DNA of 64,000 nt from Escherichia coli (GTDB taxonomy: Bacteria > Pseudomonadota > Gammaproteobacteria > Enterobacterales > Enterobacteriaceae), in the NCBI GenBank assembly GCA_009729775.1, contig GCA_009729775.1_4081.1, one strand, 5' to 3'. Made by a program: the position numbers and the translations under genes. Shown piece after piece: positions 3,782 through 64,000 of the stretch. Under the pieces are notes generated by a model. The model was not told the DNA's origin, ran no database searches, and saw only the letters and a list, made by a program, of their open reading frames with translations. Position 1 is the first letter of the stretch; the number at the start of each line of letters is the position of its first letter.

Positions 3782-4374
3782 TATTCTTCCTTGAAAAATG
3801 TAATAAAATGTTCCATATGTTTTTCTGTGGCATTGCGTGAACCAATACCAGTCCAGTTACCATGTGGTGCTGGAACGACGAATGTTTGTGTGAACTCTTT
3901 CAGTACTGTATCGAAATAAAATACTGAACGTGAATTCATATCATAACAATAAATTTCAGGATTTTCAACTGAATCCATATACATCTGTACTGCCCATGCA
4001 GTACCACCACTTACCTTAGTTGGTGATGTGATATTTGCAATACAATATATTCTTTCTGTATTAAGTATCTGATAACTATTCCTTGCAAGTAAGTTGTAAA
4101 CATAAGAACCTGGCTTTGGTACTTTTCGCTGCAACGAGTAACATGCAATGTTTAGTTGATTTAATATAGAAATATCAGATAGAATATTGGATGGTATTTC
4201 TAATATAGTACTTTCATCTACACTATGCTCATGACCTTTGAATGAAAAATTAATAACTTCAAATCCATTATTTTTTGCATAGATAGAAAAAAGGCGGTCA
4301 GCACCTGCTGCCCCGCCACTAAAACATACATTAGATAAACCTTTAATTGCTTCATCTAATTCATTCTTTTTCAT
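3781..4374 (-). CDS. hypothetical protein, possible SLOG/YpsA-like nucleotide-binding fold
   Basis: 197 aa; Gly-rich motif CFSGGAAGADRL near N-terminus resembling Rossmann-type SLOG motif; assignment weak. Confidence 0.5.
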   Translation of the reverse strand: MKKNELDEAIKGLSNVCFSGGAAGADRLFSIYAKNNGFEVINFSFKGHEHSVDESTILEIPSNILSDISILNQLNIACYSLQRKVPKPGSYVYNLLARNSYQILNTERIYCIANITSPTKVSGGTAWAVQMYMDSVENPEIYCYDMNSRSVFYFDTVLKEFTQTFVVPAPHGNWTGIGSRNATEKHMEHFITFFKEE

Positions 4375-4377
4375 ATT

Positions 4378-5034
4378 TTATTTTGCTTTACGTTCTGCAA
4401 ATAGTTGTTTTACTTTCTCAATAGCTTTAGTCTGTGAAATACCTTCTGGAATTTCTAGATAAATTGTTTTACTATCTTTCGGTTGTTCAACAACTTGTGT
4501 TTGCGGACGCAAGCTTGGCTCTAAATTGTATGCACGTTCATAATGTTCTTTAGCCAGTTTTTCATATTTTTGTGCATCAGTGAGAAGTTGTTCTACAATA
4601 GTAGCTTCTTCTACTTTAGTGTCTGCTTCTTGTGGATTGAATGGGTTAAAGTCTTTTACTTTACCATCTTCTTGTACTTTCGCTTGATTTTCATCTAATG
4701 CTTTGTTTAGAACATCAAGAGAAATTTTATTATTACCACCAGTGTGCATATCAATATCACAAGTACGAACGCGACGTAGATGCTGCATGTTGTGTAGAAC
4801 ATCTAGCATTTTGCGTCCATCGAGATAACCAATTTTATGCATTACTTCCCACAAATCAATATTAGATTGACCATGACCCATAACAATATCAGTTACTGCG
4901 TGTACATATGCTTCTGGTAGTGAATCACGATAAACGATAAGGCAGTGTTCAGGATCATCTGGTAGTGAACGCCAAACAACAAAAACACGAGAACCTGTAT
5001 TACGCATTACACCAACATGACGAATAGCTGCCAT
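4378..5034 (-). CDS. hypothetical protein (218 aa)
   Basis: ORF tightly packed with co-oriented neighbours; no recognisable motif. Confidence 0.5.
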   Translation of the reverse strand: MAAIRHVGVMRNTGSRVFVVWRSLPDDPEHCLIVYRDSLPEAYVHAVTDIVMGHGQSNIDLWEVMHKIGYLDGRKMLDVLHNMQHLRRVRTCDIDMHTGGNNKISLDVLNKALDENQAKVQEDGKVKDFNPFNPQEADTKVEEATIVEQLLTDAQKYEKLAKEHYERAYNLEPSLRPQTQVVEQPKDSKTIYLEIPEGISQTKAIEKVKQLFAERKAK

Positions 5035-5391: not shown

Positions 5392-6816
5392 TTAACTACG
5401 TTGACGCTTTTTATCAGCTTCATATTCGTAGTGTACAGTCTCACCAAATGGTGCAACTTTATTTGGGTTACTGTGAATCACGAACAGTGTTTTACAGTAG
5501 TTTGGATCACCCCATGACTGCCACGGTTCACCATCAGTAAACATTACAAGCTGTTTAGGCTTGTAGTTGTCGTTCTTCATATGAACCCATACTGCTTCAA
5601 AGTCAGTACCACCACCACCTTTTACTGGATATTCCAGAATCTTACGTTCTTCGCCAGTTTTGTAATCCTTTACAGTATAAACTTCAGTATCAAAAGTCAT
5701 GATACGAATCTTAAACTGTTTGAATTGTTTAGTGATGCCAAGAACTTCACTAATGAAATCACGAAGCATATCTTCAGAAATAGACCCAGAAGCATCTAGT
5801 GCAATCGCAATATCAATATCATCATCTGGTTTCATCCCTGGGTAAATTGGATTACCATAGAATGAACCATTAGAACCAAAACCTGCACCCCAAGAACGAC
5901 GATTAGGATTTTGATATGTTGCATCAGACTTCAACCAACTACGAAGTGTACGTTGAAGTTTTGAACGCCAGTCAATCTTTGGTTCTTTAAAGTTGTTAAT
6001 CATACGAGCGATTTCTGCTGGTGTACCACCTGCACGAGCAGCATTCATCATTGCTGTTTTGAAATCATCCATGTAATCACGTTTTTGCTGTTCACTTGAA
6101 CCACCCTCTTGACCTTCTTGTGGAACGTCATGCTGGTCAATGGTAGTACCTTTTGGTTTACCCTTACCATCTTTAATATCGCCAAAAGTACCGCGATTTT
6201 TACCTTCACCTTCGCCACCACCACTTTGTGGTTGACCTTCACCTTCACCATCTTCTTTTTGTTCTTCTTCTTCAAGAAGAATGTAAATCTCTTCTGCGGT
6301 CATACCTTCATATTTTTTATCATACAACCATGAACTTTGGATTTTTCCAATTTTCTCACGAACGATGATTTGGTTAATGGCATAATCCGCTGCACGGTTA
6401 TAACGTTGTGGATCACGCATACCACGACGAAGGAAGTGATCGTAAGCACAGTGTAGAATTTCATGACAAATTACAGCAATAAGGTTTTCATCAGTCAAAC
6501 CTTCAGTCATTTCTTTTAATTGTTCGTCTGTAACTTCAGGATGCTTTTCACGAATAGCTTCTTCATATTCTTTCTTTTTAGATGGGTCTTGAATACCCAT
6601 TACAAATTCTACGTTGTAGAATAGATGTTTACCATCAACTGCTAGAGTACGACACCATGTATTATTAGCAACTGGACGTAAACGTGAAGCGAGTACACCA
6701 AAGAATGGTGCAGTTAACATCAAAGATGTACGAGCCAGAACCAGACGATCTTGACATTCTTTCTGGAGTGCCGGAGATACTTCATTGAATCTGGAAGTAG
6801 ATTTGTTATCTGACAT
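5392..6816 (-). CDS. VWA-domain protein with N-terminal HExxH metallopeptidase-like region
   Basis: 474 aa; HEILH motif; C-terminal MIDAS-like DASGS motif (IALDASGSISEDM); Gly/Glu-rich linker; partner of upstream AAA+ ATPase. Confidence 0.8.
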   Translation of the reverse strand: MSDNKSTSRFNEVSPALQKECQDRLVLARTSLMLTAPFFGVLASRLRPVANNTWCRTLAVDGKHLFYNVEFVMGIQDPSKKKEYEEAIREKHPEVTDEQLKEMTEGLTDENLIAVICHEILHCAYDHFLRRGMRDPQRYNRAADYAINQIIVREKIGKIQSSWLYDKKYEGMTAEEIYILLEEEEQKEDGEGEGQPQSGGGEGEGKNRGTFGDIKDGKGKPKGTTIDQHDVPQEGQEGGSSEQQKRDYMDDFKTAMMNAARAGGTPAEIARMINNFKEPKIDWRSKLQRTLRSWLKSDATYQNPNRRSWGAGFGSNGSFYGNPIYPGMKPDDDIDIAIALDASGSISEDMLRDFISEVLGITKQFKQFKIRIMTFDTEVYTVKDYKTGEERKILEYPVKGGGGTDFEAVWVHMKNDNYKPKQLVMFTDGEPWQSWGDPNYCKTLFVIHSNPNKVAPFGETVHYEYEADKKRQRS

Positions 6817-6890
6817 GTATATTTCCTCGTTTAGTTAAGATAAAAGAAGGATACCATTAGGCATCCTTCTTGTCAACAACTCTTTGTTAA

Positions 6891-8216
6891 TTAGCCAAGA
6901 GAGCGTGCTTTACGTACAAGTTCAGAGTACTTAGCGATGAAATCTTTAAACGCTGGTACATCTTTAATGGAAATCGCAACCTTATGAAGCGTGATGGTAC
7001 GAATTGCCAGTACTGCCAGTTCTGCTTGAGTTGCAGAGAAGTTATGGTCTAGGAAGGTGATGAAGTTGTTACACAGTTTACCCCATTCTTCCACTGGTAG
7101 ACGTTGTTCTTGCTTCTCATTGAACAGGTCGATAATTTTATAAACCAAGTTCAGAGTGATAAAGTAGTTCGCAGAAATATCCAGAGTTGCGTCGATTTCT
7201 TTGATTTCACCAGACAGAATAGACATAGTATCTGGTAGTTTAGCAACGTTCTCAACGTACTCAATGTATTCAGTTGCAACACCTTCACCAACACGACCAG
7301 CAATCATTGCACGGAACACTTCTTTATCAATTGTCTTAGTTTTCTTGAGATCTTCGTAGCGTGCTACTGCTTCCCATGAACGTGGAGAAGTACCACCGCT
7401 GTGAGAAGGATCTTGTGGACTAAGTGTGTTAAAGTACTTAGAACCAGTGTTGTTGATGAACGCAACAGTTGCTGGGTTCAAACGTTTTGCAATCGCATAA
7501 TCGTTAATCCAATCTTGATGGTAAGGAATCATCTCAATGTGAGTCATACGGTCACGCAGTGGTGTAGCAAGAGAGAAAGTTACACCGCCATCAGTTTCAC
7601 GGTTACCTGCTGCAAGAATCAGTGCAGTCTTAGGTAGCTTCATCTCACCAACACAACGGTCGAGGATTAGCTGATAAGACGCTGCCTGAACAATAGGCAT
7701 TGCAGAGTTAATTTCGTCAAACAGAATAACACCTTTCCAATCTTCGGACAATTTCAGAACTTTAGGTGCAGCCCATACTACCGCAGTTTCAGCTACATAA
7801 TCTTTTGCTTCGGCAAGCTCAGATTCTTTCAGAAGAGAACCGTCAGTTTTACGGAAAAGCTTCTCTGGTACTGGAATACCGCGAAGGTCACTTGGTTCGA
7901 TTTGAGACAAACGGAAATCGATAAAGTTAGTATCTTGGTCGATTAGTTTTGCTTCAAATGCAGCCAGTTCACGGCGTAGCTGATCAGCATTTTCAGGGTC
8001 AGCTTCGATTTGTTGTTTCATGAACTCGATTTTAGCTACGTTATCTTTACGCAGTGGGTAATTTTCATCAGCATATTGACGAGCGATAGCAGACTTACCG
8101 ATACCTGGGCTACCCCAAATCATCAGGCTATCTTGAATCATGTCAGCCAGTGCCATTGCTTCTTTAGCTTTCTTTGGAGTCAGTTTAACGTTCAGGATAT
8201 CGTTTTGAGTAGTCAT
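6891..8216 (-). CDS. AAA+ ATPase, MoxR/CobS-like
   Basis: 441 aa; Walker A GSPGIGKS, Walker B ILFDEIN; AAA+ sensor region; adjacent VWA partner. Confidence 0.8.
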   Translation of the reverse strand: MTTQNDILNVKLTPKKAKEAMALADMIQDSLMIWGSPGIGKSAIARQYADENYPLRKDNVAKIEFMKQQIEADPENADQLRRELAAFEAKLIDQDTNFIDFRLSQIEPSDLRGIPVPEKLFRKTDGSLLKESELAEAKDYVAETAVVWAAPKVLKLSEDWKGVILFDEINSAMPIVQAASYQLILDRCVGEMKLPKTALILAAGNRETDGGVTFSLATPLRDRMTHIEMIPYHQDWINDYAIAKRLNPATVAFINNTGSKYFNTLSPQDPSHSGGTSPRSWEAVARYEDLKKTKTIDKEVFRAMIAGRVGEGVATEYIEYVENVAKLPDTMSILSGEIKEIDATLDISANYFITLNLVYKIIDLFNEKQEQRLPVEEWGKLCNNFITFLDHNFSATQAELAVLAIRTITLHKVAISIKDVPAFKDFIAKYSELVRKARSLG

Positions 8217-22546: not shown

Positions 22547-23023
22547 TTATTTTAGAATGTATAAGTGTTTTTCTGCATTGACCAGACGGTGATCAATGAT
22601 TTCTTTGATAACGTTCCAGTTACCGCCGCCCAAATCGGCTCCAATTTTCGGGAAATGTACATGAACATCTCGATCAACTTTACAAAAATAATTTAGATGT
22701 TTGAACACATCGTCAATTGCATCATAACTGACATATTTAGCACCGTCATTACCGTACATTTTTTGGGTAATACAGTTTGCAATAATCAAATTATCGTTAA
22801 TTGCTGAATATGCAATTTGTCCAATTCTAAGAAATCCCATTTCCTTTTCATATGCTTTATAATCATCATATGCCATTGGATAACGATTTCTTAGTTCTTT
22901 TGCAAAACCTGAACCCATTTTACCCTGTGCGTTACAACCATGAGCAATTATATGTAATGCATTTTGATCATCGGTAACAGTACTGAACAATTCAAACAGA
23001 TTACCTCTGTGTTCATGTATCAT
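22547..23023 (-). CDS. macro-domain (ADP-ribose binding/processing) protein
   Basis: 158 aa; HGCNAQGKMGSGFAKEL and FPKIGADLGGGNW resemble macro-domain N-x-N-x-G-G-G and FP-x-I-G-x-G motifs. Confidence 0.6.
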   Translation of the reverse strand: MIHEHRGNLFELFSTVTDDQNALHIIAHGCNAQGKMGSGFAKELRNRYPMAYDDYKAYEKEMGFLRIGQIAYSAINDNLIIANCITQKMYGNDGAKYVSYDAIDDVFKHLNYFCKVDRDVHVHFPKIGADLGGGNWNVIKEIIDHRLVNAEKHLYILK

Positions 23024-23852: not shown

Positions 23853-24254
23853 TTATTTCCTTCTATTTCTTTGAAAAGCTTTAACAGCTTTAATAATACT
23901 GTTACACATTCGTTCAGTCAAATACTTTTGACATTCTCGTACATCAATGTACATGAACTTATCCAATTCTGGATGACTCTTACCATATCTATTAGTGTAA
24001 GTACTTTTACAAACTAATTCATCTGGTATTGGTTTGTCTTTGGCAGTATAAAAGAAAAGTACTAACCTTTTTCCCTTTCTATAGGATACATCACCAAGAA
24101 ACAGAAGATCATCTTCATCGATTTCGTATCCTGTCTCTTCGAAACATTCACGTACAGCAGCTTCTTTGAAAGTTTCATTACCCTCAGCTTTCCCTTTAGG
24201 TAAATCCCAATGATTCTGTCCGTGTTGTATGTCCGATAAGTATCTGACCATCAC
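23853..24254 (-). CDS. Nudix hydrolase
   Basis: 133 aa; canonical Nudix box GKAEGNETFKEAAVRECFEETGY. Confidence 0.85.
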   Translation of the reverse strand: MMVRYLSDIQHGQNHWDLPKGKAEGNETFKEAAVRECFEETGYEIDEDDLLFLGDVSYRKGKRLVLFFYTAKDKPIPDELVCKSTYTNRYGKSHPELDKFMYIDVRECQKYLTERMCNSIIKAVKAFQRNRRK

Positions 24255-24362: not shown

Positions 24363-25475
24363 TTAGAACATTTGTTTGATTGCTTCGTAACGAAGTTCAC
24401 AAACAAAATCACGAATTTCTGACGTTTCAAGTTCACCATCTTTGACCATTTGCTGAATATCAGGCAATTCAACATCAGTATAACGATCATAAACTTTAAT
24501 AATTAGATCTTCAAGTTCTAAATCAATTTCTTTTCGCAAAATGAAGTATTCCAAAACTTTATAAAGGAATTCTTCACCTCCGTTATTTTTAATATTCATA
24601 TCCAATAAAATATTACCCATTTCAATAGGGGTCTTTTTACGGAATGTTTTGATATCATCACGGAAACGTTTGATATAATTACTAAATTTAACATACTTAA
24701 CTGGAACTTTAATAGCACCGTTAAGTACTGAATCATTATTTACTTCTTCATTTTCAAGAAGAATAGACCACAGAAAATATGGTTTATATACATCCGTACA
24801 GTTCTCTGCAATATAATCAATAAGGTCTAAATTCTTTTTGGTCAAAGATGTATTAAACACCTTTTCGTAATAACCAAATTTACTTAGCGTCTTAAGGAAC
24901 TTTGCAGGCTTTTCTTCGGAAAATGCTTTTTCGAATTCCACAAAAACACGGTCAGGAACAAGATGATTTAGTTCACCACTATTGACCATTCCAATAGCGA
25001 GTTCCTCAGTGCTTTCATGGATAGTAAAGTCTGAATAACGAGTAGCAAATCGAGCAAGACGTAACACGCGTAATGGATCTTCTTTAAAATGGTCAGAAAC
25101 ATGACGTAGTATCTTGTTCTTGATATCAGCTTTACCACCGTATGGATCGATGTGAATTTGTAGTACTGGATCATACGCAATTGCATTAATTGTAAGGTCA
25201 CGGCGATACAAATCTTGTTCTAGTGTTACGCCTTTTGTATCCACTTCAAAGCCACCATATCCAGTACCAGTTTTACGCTCAGTACGGGCTAATGCGTGTT
25301 CATTACCTTCTGGACTTAGATATACTGGGAAATCCTTACCTACTTGCTTATAGCCAATACTTTGCAAGTACTTAAGATCAGATTCGGATGCACCAACAAT
25401 GACATAATCTTTGTCTTTTGCACGGATGCCCATTAAACGGTCACGGACGTAACCGCCAACCAAATACTTTTTCAT
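24363..25475 (-). CDS. CCA-adding tRNA nucleotidyltransferase / poly(A)-polymerase head-domain protein
   Basis: 370 aa; N-terminal LVGGYVRD...DKDY signature of class II CCA enzymes. Confidence 0.8.
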   Translation of the reverse strand: MKKYLVGGYVRDRLMGIRAKDKDYVIVGASESDLKYLQSIGYKQVGKDFPVYLSPEGNEHALARTERKTGTGYGGFEVDTKGVTLEQDLYRRDLTINAIAYDPVLQIHIDPYGGKADIKNKILRHVSDHFKEDPLRVLRLARFATRYSDFTIHESTEELAIGMVNSGELNHLVPDRVFVEFEKAFSEEKPAKFLKTLSKFGYYEKVFNTSLTKKNLDLIDYIAENCTDVYKPYFLWSILLENEEVNNDSVLNGAIKVPVKYVKFSNYIKRFRDDIKTFRKKTPIEMGNILLDMNIKNNGGEEFLYKVLEYFILRKEIDLELEDLIIKVYDRYTDVELPDIQQMVKDGELETSEIRDFVCELRYEAIKQMF

Positions 25476-25610: not shown

Positions 25611-26033
25611 TTAAATTAATCTATCACGTAGACGGTCGTAATATTTTTTGTGTATAGCTAGTATACACTGATATGCAGAATAGTCAATACCAAATGTATC
25701 ATCAATGAACATGTACTGATCAAGTGTTTCCGGTCCATTATCATCAACTGGTAATGTCCCTTCTTTTTTTGATAGTGTGTGCCACATCAACTCACTTTCA
25801 ATATGGTGAGTTGCGTATGTCAATTCTATCTTACTTTTTCGTAGTAAAATTAACAATTCATCATTGTCGTCGAGTGCATTACGAAATTTAATACGAACTG
25901 TACCCTGGAAATTATTAGTGTACATAACACGATGATGATTGTATGAAATCAAACCACGTCTTTCAGTACTGATTTCGTGTTCAGCAAAGTACTTTAACGT
26001 TTCATTAAATTTTGGAATTTTAGTAACGTCCAA
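25611..26033 (-). CDS. hypothetical protein (140 aa), paralog of next gene
   Basis: Shares IDDTFGIDYSAYQ block with 26020..26436 (IEDTFGIDFDTYQ). Confidence 0.5.
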   Translation of the reverse strand: MDVTKIPKFNETLKYFAEHEISTERRGLISYNHHRVMYTNNFQGTVRIKFRNALDDNDELLILLRKSKIELTYATHHIESELMWHTLSKKEGTLPVDDNGPETLDQYMFIDDTFGIDYSAYQCILAIHKKYYDRLRDRLI

Positions 26034-26436
26034 TCACATAATCCTCATAAAGTTCGTATACCCTCATTATACTCTGATATGTATCAAAGTCAATACCAAA
26101 GGTATCCTCAATGAACTGATATTGCAAAAACTCTTCCTCTGTAGCAGCAATAGGAAGAGTCCCGTTTCGTTGTTCTGTGGATTGAACATCCTCAATATAC
26201 ATCAACACTATACCTTCATCCAGATTTATATCTATCATAAAAACATCTTCACTATAAAATATGTTATATGTACGGATGAAGAGATTTCCTGTTCTATCAT
26301 AACTTGACACGTGTGTTTCATAATACATTTTATCTAAACTAAAGAACAAACCTGTACTATCTGGCTTTTTAGTATTTTTTAATTTAATTTCGATAGCATC
26401 AATAATAGGTTTAATATCAAATTTTTTCATAGACAA
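26020..26436 (-). CDS. hypothetical protein (138 aa), paralog of previous gene
   Basis: Paralog relationship as above. Confidence 0.5.
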   Translation of the reverse strand: MSMKKFDIKPIIDAIEIKLKNTKKPDSTGLFFSLDKMYYETHVSSYDRTGNLFIRTYNIFYSEDVFMIDINLDEGIVLMYIEDVQSTEQRNGTLPIAATEEEFLQYQFIEDTFGIDFDTYQSIMRVYELYEDYVIGRY

Positions 26437-26612
26437 ATCTCATATCGATTAGTGTTTGGATCATAGCAATAATTATCATTAACTTTAACACCAGGTTTAA
26501 GTGTTATTGTTGTTCCTACTTCAGTACTGGATTCCGCATCACAGTAAATCATCACACCAACTCCTGCGAGTAAGGCTACGATACATACAATTACACCAAT
26601 GGTATATTCCAT
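26427..26612 (-). CDS. small membrane protein (61 aa)
   Basis: One hydrophobic segment VIVCIVALLAGVGVMIY. Confidence 0.4.
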   Translation of the reverse strand: MEYTIGVIVCIVALLAGVGVMIYCDAESSTEVGTTITLKPGVKVNDNYCYDPNTNRYEICL

Positions 26613-26625
26613 TTCAATTCCTCGG

Positions 26626-27021
26626 TTATAAAAAGTAATTATACAGTTTATTGTACAATATAAAAAGGTCTTTCACATTATCATAAGTAATATCAGATAC
26701 ATCATGAATTAATGATAACTGAAAAAATGAAGCTTCGTCTATTTCTGCTGGAATTATAACATCACCATCGTCTTCGTCCATTTTATTAGTGTAGTATTTT
26801 ATGTGATCTACATTCAACTCAATAGAGAACGCAATGTTGGTTTTTGTATAATCTTCAATTAATCCAATATATTGAGATTTTTCATTAATAAAAAATCCAA
26901 TCCCAACACAACGGTTATCTGGATATGGATAGTACCATCTATTAATAACTAGGTGTTCAGGTAAGTCCATATCATGTGTTGATATTATAGATTTTACAAT
27001 TTCCATCCAGGAATAATTCAT
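26626..27021 (-). CDS. hypothetical protein (131 aa)
   Basis: ORF in track. Confidence 0.5.
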   Translation of the reverse strand: MNYSWMEIVKSIISTHDMDLPEHLVINRWYYPYPDNRCVGIGFFINEKSQYIGLIEDYTKTNIAFSIELNVDHIKYYTNKMDEDDGDVIIPAEIDEASFFQLSLIHDVSDITYDNVKDLFILYNKLYNYFL

Positions 27022-59290: not shown

Positions 59291-59848
59291 TTAGCTCCCT
59301 TTGTATTGATGTTTATGTTTTGTACTGTATTTCCAGCCAGTACTATGTCTTGTTCTGATATCGTCCCAATACGATGGTAATGAACGCATCTTACGTCTTC
59401 CACGTATATCAGGTTCCCCCTCATCCTTCAGTACTGCACAAGCCATACGACGCTCTTGTTGAGTCTTAGGACGCTTGTATCGGGAGTGGTTATGTTTGTA
59501 CATATACGAACGCTTATGACGCCATTCCGTATCACGAGCTTTACGTTTATGTTCCCAGTACTCATTATAGAGTATCATGTATTCACCCATAAGTAAATCA
59601 GGAGATACAAGTAATCCTTTTTCAGTACAAAGATAATAACCCACAAACTTTTCTGGAAACATTTCGTAATAGAAACGGTTCTTCCAAAATGTTTCACGAT
59701 TCTTTTTGTTGAATTCTGCTAAATCAAATTTCATCTTACTGTGGAAACGATCTATCCCTTGATGGTCAGCAATGTATTGAAGTAGATCGTCTACAATCTC
59801 AACTTTACCAGAATCGTGATACAACGTAAATGTTTGGTCAAAAAACAT
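59291..59848 (-). CDS. hypothetical protein with strongly basic C-terminal tail (185 aa)
   Basis: AAGGAG SD 8 nt upstream; K/R/H/Y-rich C-terminus. Confidence 0.45.
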   Translation of the reverse strand: MFFDQTFTLYHDSGKVEIVDDLLQYIADHQGIDRFHSKMKFDLAEFNKKNRETFWKNRFYYEMFPEKFVGYYLCTEKGLLVSPDLLMGEYMILYNEYWEHKRKARDTEWRHKRSYMYKHNHSRYKRPKTQQERRMACAVLKDEGEPDIRGRRKMRSLPSYWDDIRTRHSTGWKYSTKHKHQYKGS

Positions 59849-59950
59849 ATGAAATCTCCTTTAAGTTAAAATAACCTAATGGAAAGTCATTCTTCCTTTA
59901 ATACATGTTCTCATGATTTGTTCCTTTTGTCAAGATATAGATATAAAAAA

Positions 59951-59970
59951 TCCCTGCCAAAAGACAGGGA
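59951..59970 (-). terminator. rho-independent terminator
   Basis: 6-bp stem TCCCTG/CAGGGA, 8-nt loop, followed on minus strand by TTTTTT. Confidence 0.6.
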
Positions 59971-60074
59971 CGAAAAACTGAAATAACACATGGAGTTCTT
60001 TTTAATTTAATAAAAAGTATTATTATTCTTATAAAAGTATTTATTAAGAACTCCACAATATTGCTTCAAATGAA

Positions 60075-60263
60075 TCAAAAACCTTTCTGAGCTACTAGTT
60101 CACGGTACTGTGCACGAGTTAGTACACCTTGCTTGCGTAGAGCTTGTAGACCGGATAGGGTTTCACTCTTACGTTGTTCGTACATACGTTGTTCTTTGGA
60201 TTGAATAACTTTCTCTTTCTTAACTTTTGCTACTGGTTCTTGTTTCTTAGGTTGTTTAGCCAT
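60075..60263 (-). CDS. small basic protein (62 aa)
   Basis: ORF in track; K/R/Q-rich. Confidence 0.4.
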   Translation of the reverse strand: MAKQPKKQEPVAKVKKEKVIQSKEQRMYEQRKSETLSGLQALRKQGVLTRAQYRELVAQKGF

Positions 60264-60331
60264 TTTATATCTCCTTCTGTATTATGATAACAACATTATA
60301 TCATGTATGGGACATAATGTCCCATACAATA

Positions 60332-61771
60332 TTACATATTTTCTTCAGCAAATTCAGCCAGTGGTGAACGAACAACACCTTCTAGTTCGATGACACGACA
60401 ACCTGCCCAGTCTTTAAACTTCTCAGTTACATATGTCAAACCACTGTTAACAGGACTAATAAACTTACTGTCAATCTGACTCAAGTTACCCATAATTACT
60501 ACTTTACAGTTTAACCCTGCTCGTGTCAAGATGGTTTTTGCTTGTGCAGGTGTAATGTTTTGGAATTCATCAACTACTAGAATAGTGTTGGTGAATGAAC
60601 GTCCACGTACAAAGTTTAGTGCTTTAAATTGAATAACATTACGTTTCATAATCTCTTCAATACTACCTTGTGGATTGGCATCATCTTTATGAAGAAACTC
60701 TAACGCATCAATCGCGGCTCCACAGAATGGAATCACTTTTTCTGCTTCTGAACCTGGCAAGAAACCAATATCTTCAAACTGTGAGTCTTGAGTTTTAGAG
60801 AAGATGATTCGGTCGTATTTACGTTTTTCCAGTACTAATTCTAATGCAGTAGCAATTGTAATTAGTGTTTTACCAGTACCAGCAGAACCTAGCAGTACTG
60901 TTAGATGTACATCAGGATCGAGAATACTGTTGATGGCGAGTGCTTGTTGGATATTCTTTGCTTTAATATCCCATACTTTAGCACGTAAAGCCACTGATTG
61001 TCCAATGTCTTGGAATACCAAAATATCTTCTGGTGTTAGTGTTCCATCATCTTCCTCAATTGCTGATTGTCCTTCGTACACAAATAATACGTCAGCATCA
61101 TCATATAGATAATCACCGATGCATAGATTTTGTGGAAGCAGATGTTCAATCAAGCTTTTAGAAATGTAATGATACAAACGACGACCAACTTGTTCGGATT
61201 GAATATTAGTATTGGTTAAGTTGCTGTATACTTCCCAAAAATTGATTTCCAGATGGTGTTGACCAATGTGAATCAAATCACTATCACCAATAACAATATC
61301 ATGGCGATAATCTTGTACCTCGACACCATAACTTAGTGCTTTGATACGCATGTTGATATCACGAGTTACCAGTACTGATTCTGTTGCTAAAGCTACCAGA
61401 ATGATTTTATCATCAGGTACAGTACTTTTGAGAAGGGTTTGAACTTTCTCTTCTGTACCTTTAGTACGAATTAGTGCCTCAGCTTCTTCGTTTGTAATAA
61501 CAAACAATTTGCTATCAGGATTCATATTGGTATGAACATCAGCAATATTAACACCAGTACTACTAATCTCGTCATGTGATGCATCTGCAATAATTGCTTC
61601 AATGTTACGAATAGCAACACGAGCATCGCGTGAAACATCTACATTACGACTCTTAATCGAATCTAATTCTTCCAGTACTGTAAATGGTAGAATGATTGCA
61701 GCACCATCAAAAGCAATAGATGCATTAGGGTCAGATAGTAGTACGTTTGTGTCAATTGTATATTTTTTCAT
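60332..61771 (-). CDS. phoH: PhoH-like ATPase with N-terminal PIN domain
   Basis: 479 aa; PIN-like N-terminus (YTIDTNVLL); Walker A LLGSAGTGKTL; Walker B VVDEFQN. Confidence 0.85.
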   Translation of the reverse strand: MKKYTIDTNVLLSDPNASIAFDGAAIILPFTVLEELDSIKSRNVDVSRDARVAIRNIEAIIADASHDEISSTGVNIADVHTNMNPDSKLFVITNEEAEALIRTKGTEEKVQTLLKSTVPDDKIILVALATESVLVTRDINMRIKALSYGVEVQDYRHDIVIGDSDLIHIGQHHLEINFWEVYSNLTNTNIQSEQVGRRLYHYISKSLIEHLLPQNLCIGDYLYDDADVLFVYEGQSAIEEDDGTLTPEDILVFQDIGQSVALRAKVWDIKAKNIQQALAINSILDPDVHLTVLLGSAGTGKTLITIATALELVLEKRKYDRIIFSKTQDSQFEDIGFLPGSEAEKVIPFCGAAIDALEFLHKDDANPQGSIEEIMKRNVIQFKALNFVRGRSFTNTILVVDEFQNITPAQAKTILTRAGLNCKVVIMGNLSQIDSKFISPVNSGLTYVTEKFKDWAGCRVIELEGVVRSPLAEFAEENM

Positions 61772-61831
61772 AAAACATCCTTGAGTTATGAGTACATCCT
61801 TGTACTCGACTAATGTTATTGACTCGGATTA

Positions 61832-62134
61832 TTACATATTTGGTTCGTATTCAACATAGCAACGTGAACCTCGAACCTTTTCTTCCCAGCACTCCTGGTA
61901 AACAAGTTGACCAATTGAAACTGGTTCTCTTGATAGTCCATTACGTACTTCACCACTTTGGGTTTTATACATGAATGAACATTTGGACTCGCTACATTGT
62001 CCTAAACTAACAACTTCTGCGGTATTGTAGTGAATGTTGGTACGCTTAGTGTTCTCGTGATACTGTCCGAACCAAAGAACTCCTGCACCTAACAGAACAG
62101 TACAAATAAGACTTTTGATGTGTGTTTGAATCAT
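61832..62134 (-). CDS. secreted/membrane Cys-containing protein (100 aa)
   Basis: N-terminal hydrophobic segment; six Cys. Confidence 0.45.
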   Translation of the reverse strand: MIQTHIKSLICTVLLGAGVLWFGQYHENTKRTNIHYNTAEVVSLGQCSESKCSFMYKTQSGEVRNGLSREPVSIGQLVYQECWEEKVRGSRCYVEYEPNM

Positions 62135-62451
62135 AATGCGTTAAATCCATTGTTTAAGTATGTTTCAATATTAATTTTACCAACAGGATTACTACTGTGA
62201 ACAAAGTACTCAAACGGTTCTTTAATATTATTATCAAACATATAATCAATAAGAAACTTAGCAAAAGAATATCCAGTCTTTTCGTCTTCGCTCACATCAC
62301 CCAAGTCATGGTCGAATGATACAAATGCTGGAATTCCATTTTCAATAACATATTCACATGCACTTTTAAAGTCACGACATACCACCATATCTTGGTTTGG
62401 ATAATATAGATTTGCATCACGAATATCATCCAAAAACATTGCGTAAGACAT
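62131..62451 (-). CDS. hypothetical protein (106 aa)
   Basis: ORF in track; 4-nt overlap with neighbour. Confidence 0.45.
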   Translation of the reverse strand: MSYAMFLDDIRDANLYYPNQDMVVCRDFKSACEYVIENGIPAFVSFDHDLGDVSEDEKTGYSFAKFLIDYMFDNNIKEPFEYFVHSSNPVGKINIETYLNNGFNAL

Positions 62452-62460
62452 GTTAAACTC

Positions 62461-63012
62461 CTATAGATAACTAATTAGTAAGTTTTCTTTTTGAATCAGA
62501 TACTCCAATTCTTGTTTTGCTGTACCGATGAAGTTCTGTGTCATAAGATTATTATATCCCGCTTCTCGATTTTGTCCCTTAGAATAACGAGAAATATGAC
62601 ATAAATTTACACCAGCAACTTCAGCACTCGCATGTTTAGCATTAGTGTATCCATCTCTAATGTGTTTCAACTCGTCATAGCTTACTTCATAGCTAAAACT
62701 ATGACTGTTTGCACCTGGGTAAATTTCAAAAGTTTTGAGTGGTCGAAGATGGGAAACAAAAATATTGTAATCCATTTCTTCTTGAACTTCACGACGCAAC
62801 GCATCTTCTAGTGAGATATCAGTACTTTCAACTGTTCCACCACATCCTCCTAGAAGTCCATCCCAACGTAATTGTAGTAATACCAGATTTACTTCTGGTA
62901 TATCATTTAACTCATAGTTTTTGTAAGGGTTGCATTTTCTTGCAAAGAAATAGCAAAATACAAAATTTGCACGTGAGCCATATTCACCAAAGGGAACTTC
63001 TTTAACACTCAT
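62461..63012 (-). CDS. Nudix-like hydrolase (divergent Nudix box)
   Basis: 183 aa; GGCGGTVE...RREVQEEMD approximates the Nudix box with a 3-residue insertion. Confidence 0.5.
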   Translation of the reverse strand: MSVKEVPFGEYGSRANFVFCYFFARKCNPYKNYELNDIPEVNLVLLQLRWDGLLGGCGGTVESTDISLEDALRREVQEEMDYNIFVSHLRPLKTFEIYPGANSHSFSYEVSYDELKHIRDGYTNAKHASAEVAGVNLCHISRYSKGQNREAGYNNLMTQNFIGTAKQELEYLIQKENLLISYL

Positions 63013-63767
63013 TTCATACGTTCCTTAATTATAGTCTCTAGATGTGGTATTGCTTTGGTTGCTGGCTTGATAACTTTTTCATTAAACAAAAAATCATTAT
63101 CATTTTTACGAATGTTAACATTAACACTATAACATGGTAATGCTGCTGCTAATCTCGACCATACCAGTACTGTATCGCTACTACCAATTACAATAACTGT
63201 ATCATTTTCATTAAGAGATTTCAACACATTATTTCGTTCTTCGTAAATTGGTAAGCGTATACCATCAACATAACGATGATATTCTCCAATCATTACTACA
63301 TTTGGTTTAGCAAAAACATCATGTTTTGGTATGTATGGTTCGTATCCGCAGTTAATAACATTATAATCATCAGAATTGATACTATAATTTTCAATAACTT
63401 CACACAAGTTTCCATGAAGTTTAAGCTCATGACCACCAATACGAGTATAAAGATCGTCCATGTTAGAAGTCATATGAAGGAAGCAATCACCATATTGATC
63501 TTCTAACGATTTTATAAAATAATGCATTGCATTTGGTTCGCATTGTCCCAATTTTACACGTAATGTATTATAGAAAGAATGAACAACATGATATTTTGTA
63601 GTTAAACTAGCAATGTTACATACATCATTAATTTTAAATGTATCCCACAAACCATCATCAAATCGAAAAGGTTCCATCCCACTTTCAACGGAAAGTCCTG
63701 CACCTGATATAATCAGTAATCGTTTTTTACCTTCATTGCTTATAAATTTTTCTGATATCATATTCAA
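63009..63767 (-). CDS. short Sir2-like (sirtuin-family) protein
   Basis: 252 aa; GAGLSVESGMEPFR, LHGN, VVMIGE and VIGSS blocks in sirtuin order; zinc-ribbon Cys pairs not evident. Confidence 0.6.
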   Translation of the reverse strand: MNMISEKFISNEGKKRLLIISGAGLSVESGMEPFRFDDGLWDTFKINDVCNIASLTTKYHVVHSFYNTLRVKLGQCEPNAMHYFIKSLEDQYGDCFLHMTSNMDDLYTRIGGHELKLHGNLCEVIENYSINSDDYNVINCGYEPYIPKHDVFAKPNVVMIGEYHRYVDGIRLPIYEERNNVLKSLNENDTVIVIGSSDTVLVWSRLAAALPCYSVNVNIRKNDNDFLFNEKVIKPATKAIPHLETIIKERMK

Positions 63768-63770
63768 TCC

Positions 63771-63965
63771 TTATAAAAAACCAATTAAATATATTGATAA
63801 TAACAGAATGATTCCAATATGATAGGCATACATAAAATTATTATCTTTGTGATAACCATTGGATTTCAAGTCCCTGTATAAGCATTTAGCATTGTTATAA
63901 ATTACAACAATAAAAAAAACTATAAAAAAACTCAAAACCCATTCATAAATTGTGTATGCCATCAT
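63771..63965 (-). CDS. small membrane protein (64 aa)
   Basis: Two hydrophobic segments. Confidence 0.4.
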   Translation of the reverse strand: MMAYTIYEWVLSFFIVFFIVVIYNNAKCLYRDLKSNGYHKDNNFMYAYHIGIILLLSIYLIGFL

Positions 63966-64000
63966 CTATTCTCTTATAATTATATAATTTTAATACTTTA

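Follow-up and report, generated by a model that had tools for sequence, protein, structure and literature searches.

Three types of sirtuin-centred RNA-repair neighbourhood have been described in phages of proteobacteria (Iyer, Burroughs, Anantharaman and Aravind, Viruses 2022;14:1977, PMC9503650, section 3.7.3; hereafter Iyer et al., 2022), the first of them exemplified by Serratia phage BF. In that in silico proposal a distinct clade of sirtuins removes 2'-phosphates from RNA in the manner of KptA, and its partners resolve cyclic phosphates or process ADPr>P, the cyclic phosphate of ADP-ribose (ADPr). The cyclic-phosphate-processing receiver-like (cREC) domain was defined by the same authors in a 2021 paper on jumbo phages. 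This report concerns a locus of this kind in a stretch of 64,000 nucleotides (the window; Escherichia coli assembly GCA_009729775.1, contig GCA_009729775.1_4081.1), at one end of which a sirtuin gene and a Nudix hydrolase gene occupy positions 62461 to 63767. Over 60000..64000 the DNA shares 99.1% identity with Escherichia phage 121Q and 98% with PBECO4, phAPEC6 and other Asteriusvirus (Rak2-like) jumbo myoviruses, and in the GenBank and RefSeq records of 121Q the two genes are labelled 'Sir2-like protein / Sir2 (NAD-dependent deacetylase)' and 'nudix hydrolase'. The locus has been annotated before, a description and an in silico interpretation of it are in print, and its architecture in the window holds nothing new. 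The present analysis independently reproduces the neighbourhoods of Iyer et al. (2022), whose text does not mention loss of zinc, affiliation with NUDT16, the fusion of a PhoH ATPase to a PIN domain, or phage 121Q. What is added here, and could guide experiments, is the clade-wide loss of the zinc site, the clade-wide replacement of the Gln of the TQN motif, the NUDT16 affiliation of the Nudix protein and a loss of NadV, NadM and 2H genes specific to 121Q-type phages.

Comparable known enzymes share some features with these proteins and differ from them in others. The protein deacylases CobB and SIRT5 share with the phage sirtuin the Rossmann fold, GAGxS, the Asn and Asp of TQNxD, the catalytic His, FGE and overall size, but the phage protein is devoid of the zinc-binding Cys residues, has the TQN Gln replaced, carries an insert of about 12 residues after (F/I)GE and has the Arg of Y-x-x-R shifted by one position. 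Tpt1/KptA, the proposed functional analog, would be matched in the nicotinamide adenine dinucleotide (NAD+)-dependent removal of RNA 2'-phosphate to give ADP-ribose-1'',2''-cyclic phosphate, followed by a cyclic phosphodiesterase, a macrodomain and a Nudix enzyme; unlike the Rossmann-type sirtuin, Tpt1/KptA has an ADP-ribosyltransferase-type fold, and the two have no sequence relationship. No sirtuin is known to have RNA 2'-phosphotransferase activity. Defense-type SIR2 NAD+ hydrolases (NADases; ThsA, DSR1/2, SIR2-HerA and the SIR2 proteins associated with pAgo) likewise use NAD+ and have no canonical zinc ribbon, but the phage sirtuin has no SIR2 match in PADLOC, its nearest relatives are deacylases and it is encoded in a metabolic operon of a lytic phage. 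NUDT16 and its Xenopus counterpart X29 decap U8 small nucleolar RNA and hydrolyze inosine diphosphate and ADP-ribose. The phage Nudix protein resembles them in fold (template-modeling (TM) score 0.80), in the x11 spacing of its box and in the equivalents of R50, E76, E79, E80 and E136, and differs in being a bacteriophage protein of about 25% identity that is fused or coupled to cREC; relative to the human enzyme the base-stacking His24 is Phe23, and F57 and F61 are replaced by Gly and Thr (these positions were aligned by manual extension).

The genes of the sirtuin and the Nudix hydrolase head an operon that is conserved among jumbo phages and continues with cREC, a membrane protein and PIN-PhoH2:

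63009..63761, minus strand: zinc-less sirtuin (Sir2/CobB-like), 250 residues from ATG
62461..63012, minus strand: NUDT16/X29-family Nudix hydrolase, 183 residues, its start ATG within the sirtuin stop
62131..62451, minus strand: cREC domain protein, 106 residues (Pfam cREC_REC, E 1.8e-22)
61832..62134, minus strand: conserved protein of 100 residues that has a single hydrophobic stretch at its N-terminus (PHROG 14661 'membrane protein', E 3.9e-44)
60332..61771, minus strand: PIN-PhoH (PhoH2-type) predicted RNA helicase/RNase, 479 residues (Pfam PIN_4 E 8e-20, PhoH E 7e-44)

At this end of the window every gene lies on the minus strand, and those of the operon are tightly coupled through ATGA overlaps and Shine-Dalgarno sequences that overlap stop codons. 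An earlier sequence-only reading of the window had placed two open reading frames here, and both were recovered at the coordinates that it gave, on the minus strand and with the 4-nucleotide ATGA overlap (63009..63012). Its 252-residue sirtuin corresponds to a real open reading frame (63009..63767, TTG start), although the product is probably shorter: the Shine-Dalgarno AAGGA touches the TTG at 63767 directly whereas the ATG at 63761 lies 6 nucleotides downstream of it, so the true start is probably this ATG, which gives 250 residues and matches the annotated 121Q gp476. Farther down the operon, the AGGAG Shine-Dalgarno sequence of the cREC gene overlaps the Nudix stop codon and the membrane-protein gene overlaps the cREC stop by 4 nucleotides. 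For the cREC gene the likely start is the ATG at 62451 (106 residues); RefSeq 121Q gp478 is 4 codons shorter (309 nucleotides).

As judged from its sequence and predicted structure, the sirtuin is a CobB-derived, zinc-free enzyme whose NAD+ site is intact and whose catalytic His is kept. The protein matches Pfam SIR2 (PF02146; E 3.7e-20, 73.1 bits, cutoff 24) and PHROG 2162 (E 2e-77), and its best relatives of solved structure are E. coli CobB (6rxj, 1s5p; E about 1e-22, identity about 28%) followed by archaeal Sir2 and SIRT5. An AlphaFold2 model built with 28 homologs (predicted local distance difference test (pLDDT) 91, predicted TM score 0.90) found CobB as its best Foldseek match (TM 0.76–0.85, E 6e-18), and the catalytic His and the Rossmann fold, proposed earlier as checks along with a Sir2 profile search, are both in place in the superposition on CobB. 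The motifs GAGLSVESG, TSNMD and LHGN (His118) all occur and are invariant across the family; within the 28-sequence alignment G22, G24, N102, D104 and H118 do not vary and A23 and S26 scarcely do.

The zinc-ribbon CxxC...CxxC pattern carried by the cellular outgroups is not present in the window sirtuin, as had been noticed from the sequence, and C122 and C140 of the module are unconserved, although its beta strands are still predicted in the model. In a first family set of 42 protein clusters (43–100% identity, about 250 residues, mostly on contigs of jumbo-phage size) there was no conserved Cys in the small domain. A wider set drawn from 80 viral loci comprised 80 Sir2 sequences (75 distinct viral and 5 cellular outgroups), and the four zinc Cys are absent from 68 of them (63 of the 75 viral sequences) and kept in 12 (7 viral, 5 cellular), so that the absence extends across the clade. 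The zinc-less sequences span Rak2-like, T5-like and rV5-like phages. In all but one of the 68 the Gln of TQNxD has become Ala, Thr or Ser (Ser in the window sirtuin); further changes of the clade are GTS to G(S/C)S, the gain of an aromatic residue (W/F203) and the insert of about 12 residues after (F/I)GE, which is specific to it. Y66 is invariant among the 28 sequences and is replaced once, by Phe, among the 68. The position three residues after it is Leu or Met in Rak2-like phages and Arg in T5-like and rV5-like phages (the canonical Y-x-x-R, a motif for acidic acyl groups), and R70, four residues after it, is invariant across the zinc-less clade; the clade-invariant pair Y66 and R70 could bind an anion.

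Two other assignments of the sirtuin were tried and rejected. It scores 93.1, 86.4 and 85.0 bits against the NCBIfam CobB equivalogs, whose cutoffs are 318, 243 and 320, and is far from a true CobB orthologue; a defense-type SIR2 NADase was set aside on the lack of a PADLOC match (E up to 0.01) and the deacylase character of the closest relatives.

The second protein appears, on sequence and model, to be a catalytically complete pyrophosphatase of the NUDT16 family. Pfam Nudt16-like (PF22327; E 8.3e-19, 68.5 bits, cutoff 27) ranks ahead of the generic NUDIX model (PF00293; E 7.4e-7, 29.7 bits, cutoff 21.1), the protein matches PHROG 9999 (E 1.4e-90) and among proteins of solved structure it is closest to Xenopus X29 and human NUDT16 (E 2e-12 to 3e-11). 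The REVQEE core of the box (R74–E79) is intact, E62 is separated from the Arg-Glu pair by 11 residues instead of 7 and the final Gly is Asp. This spacing (E62-x11-R74-E75-x2-E78-E79) is equal to that of human NUDT16 (D63-x11-R75-E76-x2-E79-E80) and of X29. The Nudix identity proposed earlier was therefore right, but the description 'divergent' was not, since the supposedly non-canonical box is the standard NUDT16-family type. R49, E75, E78, E79 and E131 correspond to human R50, E76, E79, E80 and E136 and are invariant in a 13-sequence alignment of the phage family; the AlphaFold2 model (pLDDT 91) superposes on NUDT16 with E75, E78, E79 and E131 in place, the catalytic Glu residues on which the earlier identification had been made to depend. 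The top 39 Foldseek matches in the PDB are all NUDT16, X29 or TIRR (TM 0.71–0.80), other Nudix folds reach at most 0.6, and the nearest match among viral structures (TM 0.98) comes from Pectobacterium phage CBB, in which Nudix and cREC are one fused protein. A degenerate or inactive Nudix protein was considered and rejected in view of the NUDT16-type box and the full set of catalytic residues.

A profile search of 1.84 billion representatives recovered 489 NUDT16-like relatives (E up to 1e-3), most of them stand-alone proteins of 160–200 residues. Others are fused to cREC, Ham1/ITPase, an HD domain, a cytidylyltransferase-like domain or ankyrin repeats, and because of these fusions the family seems to act on small nucleotides or nucleotide adducts. 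The neighbors of distant NUDT16-like proteins were unannotated and uninformative.

The third protein matches Pfam PF20274 (80.3 bits, cutoff 27) and has receiver-like acidic residues in FLDD near the N-terminus and SFDHD at mid-protein. Its association with the Nudix protein is close: the two form a single polypeptide of about 300 residues in nine of the 15 complete Rak2-like loci from IMG/VR (L008–L015, L017) and in phage CBB, and for this reason they are predicted to act as one unit, although in the 121Q type, to which the window belongs, they are separate genes. The order Sir2, Nudix, cREC, small membrane protein, PIN-PhoH is kept in the window and in all 15 of these loci, down to 43% Sir2 identity, and all five genes are under purifying selection (ratio of nonsynonymous to synonymous substitution rates 0.05–0.14 against a relative with a 90% identical Sir2). 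The pairing of sirtuin with Nudix had been read as an NAD/ADP-ribose handling pair, which is reasonable; the longer operon with cREC and PIN-PhoH2 to which the pair belongs was missed in that reading. In four loci (L003, L005–L007) an extra open reading frame of 123 residues (about 6750..7121, plus strand) lies between Sir2 and Nudix, with no match in Pfam or PHROG. Distant stand-alone cREC genes adjoin a calcineurin-like phosphoesterase or sit near an RNA ligase.

Compared with type 1 of Iyer et al. (2022), the window shares the sirtuin clade, Nudix, cREC and the PIN nuclease, and locus L008 has the same order with Nudix and cREC fused; the 121Q type differs in its separate Nudix and cREC genes and in having no 2H enzyme and no NadV or NadM genome-wide. 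Upstream of Sir2, within 6 kb, an Acb1-like 2H phosphodiesterase occurs in 14 of 16 Rak2-like loci, NadV (NAMPT) in 15 and a NadM-like NMNAT-Nudix protein in 12. None of the three was found by tblastn in the window or in the whole 121Q genome, and a NadV search of the phage collection returned no Asteriusvirus among the top 60 records listed. The 2H enzyme of L003–L017 (0.2–4.2 kb upstream of Sir2) fits Pfam Acb1 (directed against the cyclic-oligonucleotide-based antiphage signaling system, CBASS; E about 1e-15) more closely than it does the general model for 2'-5' RNA ligases, and the region that combines it with NadV and the NadM-like gene could possibly double as an anti-defense island; from the 121Q type the three genes have all been lost.

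In two other phage groups the zinc-less sirtuins are accompanied by genes that heal or seal RNA ends. In T5 a HAD_SAK_2 'Swiss-army-knife RNA repair' phosphatase comes after the sirtuin T5.102; rV5-like phages have T4-type RNA ligase 1 (Rnl1), cREC, P-loop kinase and Sir2 in that order; and in T5-like phages a PhoH gene lies about 3 kb from Sir2. Taken over the three groups, the gene context of the sirtuin points to RNA-end chemistry. A separate observation concerns T5.105 (NC_005859; L082 7139..7645), which RefSeq names 'Sir2 (NAD-dependent deacetylase)' and which is actually a HAD_SAK_2 phosphatase (Pfam E 4e-20); the label is a probable annotation error carried from nearby T5.102.

The function tentatively favored for the operon, at somewhat less than an even chance, is a KptA-like, NAD+-dependent removal of 2'-phosphate from RNA followed by clearance of the ADP-ribose by-product. 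The sirtuin would consume NAD+ in attaching ADP-ribose to a phosphate of damaged RNA, releasing nicotinamide, the target being the 2'-phosphate left once a 2',3'-cyclic end has been opened. His118 would promote attack of the 2''-OH of ADP-ribose on the RNA 2'-phosphate, yielding repaired RNA with a 2'-OH and ADP-ribose-1'',2''-cyclic phosphate; cREC would open the cyclic phosphate of the latter and the Nudix protein would cut its pyrophosphate to give AMP and a phosphoribose product. Such a two-step logic would parallel both Tpt1/KptA and sirtuin deacylation. This proposal, the one already published by Iyer et al. (2022), is favored because of the conservation, tight coupling and purifying selection of the operon, the Nudix-cREC fusion, the surroundings of distant cREC genes and the RNA-repair neighbors of the same sirtuin clade, because the catalytic residues are kept, along with the possible anion-binding pair Y66 and R70, while the zinc Cys and the TQN Gln are lost, the CobB cutoffs missed and no PADLOC SIR2 model is matched, and because the phage carries further enzymes of RNA repair and ADP-ribose metabolism elsewhere:

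22547..23023, minus strand: macrodomain protein (PDB 2fg1/2afc, E about 1e-15; Streptomyces 5e3b, 1.6e-11; yeast Poa1p 6lfu, 2.7e-6)
23853..24254, minus strand: NudE-like Nudix hydrolase (Pfam NUDIX 1.1e-12, PHROG 1185)
24363..25475, minus strand: tRNA nucleotidyltransferase of the CCA-adding/poly(A) polymerase family (PolyA_pol 7e-19), adjoining the NudE-like gene
121Q 240061..241293 (about 41–43 kb of the window, by approximate mapping): RlaP-like nucleotidyltransferase gp506, 410 residues (Pfam RlaP, E 6e-16)
L089 1797..2939 and 4036..4968 (121Q 201.8–205 kb, outside the window): T4-type Rnl1 (both domains) and Pnkp (kinase and HAD phosphatase)

Judged by sequence, the remaining enzymes of an RNA-repair and ADP-ribose pathway (Rnl1, Pnkp, the CCA enzyme, the NudE-like Nudix and the macrodomain) are available in the phage. 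Poa1p, to which the macrodomain is related, is the yeast ADP-ribose-1''-phosphate phosphatase, and RlaP denotes the RNA repair pathway family of DNA polymerase beta-like proteins. The macrodomain open reading frame was missed by Pfam and found by a sequence search of the PDB; it is the only macrodomain and lies about 40 kb from the sirtuin operon, none being adjacent. Rnl1 and Pnkp are about 15–18 kb from the sirtuin. No RNA ligase adjoins the operon; gp460 proved to be a DNA ligase of the ATP-dependent type. The phage has three or more Nudix genes (NudE-like, gp477 and the MutT-like gp578, the last outside the window).

If the proposal is true, RNA ends join protein lysines as targets of sirtuin chemistry, large phages possess a second, NAD-dependent route to undo RNA cleavage by host toxins or anticodon nucleases, and a biochemical function is gained both for cREC and for the branch of the NUDT16 family found in phages. 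A more ambitious version is unlikely: no sirtuin before those of the zinc-less phage clade would have had a nucleic-acid phosphate as physiological acceptor, the enzyme being an RNA 2'-phosphotransferase or an RNA-phosphate ADP-ribosyltransferase, Nudix and cREC would convert the by-product to AMP and ribose bisphosphate, and in most Rak2-like phages NadV and NadM would regenerate NAD+ and close the cycle.

Several observations weigh against 2'-phosphate removal as the function of the operon. By sequence and fold together the closest characterized proteins are the true protein deacylases CobB and SIRT5, and the zinc-less clade has kept the hydrophobic residues V103, F/I160 and V200 and the (F/I)GE motif, positions that in known sirtuins presumably form the walls of the acyl-lysine tunnel and clamp the peptide. 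A 2H enzyme to produce the 2'-phosphate is absent from the 121Q-type phage. T4-type Pnkp and Rnl1 are already present in it, and their pathway is not known to leave 2'-phosphates and needs none removed; PIN nucleases are metal-dependent and are not known to make cyclic phosphates; and E. coli has a KptA of its own. The region also contains genes of nucleotide metabolism (NrdD/G, dCMP deaminase), the evidence from gene neighborhoods is circumstantial, and no experimental work, biochemical or genetic, on any phage sirtuin or cREC protein was found in the literature searched.

A CobB-like deacylase acting on lysines of host or phage proteins, with the Nudix protein and the macrodomain (22547..23023) destroying O-acyl-ADP-ribose and ADP-ribose, is a doubtful but substantial alternative, and deacylation was among the functions suggested from the sequence. 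In its favor are the top-ranking matches to CobB and SIRT5 in sequence (E about 1e-22) and structure (TM 0.76–0.85), the retained catalytic residues, the identity of V103, F160, G161/E162 and V200 between zinc-less and zinc-containing sirtuins, the Y-x-x-R of CobB and SIRT5 in more distant clade members and the presence of ADP-ribose complexes among the NUDT16 structures (5w6x). It leaves unexplained why the Nudix protein should be fused to the cREC phosphoesterase and why the same clade is accompanied in other phages by an RNA ligase and kinase or by a HAD-SAK phosphatase; the loss of zinc Cys and TQN Gln across the clade, the Leu or Met in place of the Y-x-x-R Arg in the subclade of the window, with Arg shifted one position, and the wide miss of the CobB equivalog cutoffs also tell against it.

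Two further explanations give the leading role to the Nudix protein. In the one, judged improbable, the Nudix-cREC unit would degrade ADP-ribose-derived immune signals or the products of NADases (ADP-ribose, cyclic ADP-ribose isomers) and feed phosphoribose into NAD+ salvage as part of an anti-defense island, the sirtuin being secondary or regulatory. The Acb1-like 2H and NadV genes so often found upstream of Sir2 (14–15 of 16 Rak2-like loci, the NadM-like gene in 12), the fusion of one NUDT16-like relative (P0189) to a cytidylyltransferase/NMNAT-like domain and the proposal that phage Nudix and cREC proteins degrade soluble ADP-ribose derivatives (Iyer et al., 2022) are consistent with it, yet the 121Q genome is without NadV, NadM and 2H and has kept Sir2, Nudix and cREC intact under purifying selection, a sirtuin consumes NAD+, which is contrary to countering its depletion, neither protein is matched by PADLOC or known anti-defense models, and the ligase, kinase and HAD-SAK links in other phages are not accounted for. 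The suggestion from the sequence that the pair counters NAD-depleting defenses thus suits relatives with NadV, NadM and an Acb1-like 2H but not this phage, which has none of them; as a whole, the original observation is confirmed and its interpretation supported in part. In the other explanation, which is less probable still, the Nudix protein would strip 5' caps or pyrophosphate (NAD, flavin adenine dinucleotide (FAD), Np4N, ppp) from host RNA, much as NUDT16 and X29 treat eukaryotic caps, and expose it to decay by PIN-PhoH2, and the sirtuin would act on NAD-capped RNA or independently. Here the closest relatives of solved structure, X29 and NUDT16 (an FAD complex among them), act in decapping, a PIN-PhoH2 protein matching the NCBIfam model 'RNA 5'-3' helicase PhoH2' is always in the same operon and PhoH is near Sir2 in T5-like phages too, but that match (152 bits) is far below its cutoff (680 bits), cREC and its fusion to Nudix are given no role, and the Ham1/ITPase and HD fusions of Nudix relatives indicate small-nucleotide substrates.

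The flanks of the operon contain a few minor features:

60075..60263, minus strand: small basic open reading frame of 62 residues, the final gene of the transcription unit, annotated as 121Q gp481
59950..59971, minus strand: terminator-like hairpin with a T-run, a possible end of the operon (weak evidence)

The 62-residue frame is weakly conserved 3' of PhoH in L003–L009 (phmmer E 1e-4 to 8e-8). The hairpin is the sole terminator-like site in 59500..64000, where 1 was found against 1.6 expected from shuffled sequences, and a promoter scan was uninformative (25 sites against 22.4 expected). The window has no tRNA genes; the tRNA cluster of the phage is at 72–78 kb, outside it. Directly 5' of Sir2 lies a hydrophobic open reading frame of 64 residues (63771..63965, minus strand) whose stop codon overlaps the Sir2 Shine-Dalgarno sequence; it is restricted to 121Q-type loci, and other Rak2-like phages have the 2H gene at that position. 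Coordinates of the window and of 121Q drift by about 1.4 kb between about 25 kb and about 60 kb of the window (the CCA enzyme lies at 24363..25475 where collinearity predicts about 25758..26870), and there is therefore at least one insertion or deletion relative to 121Q somewhere in the window.

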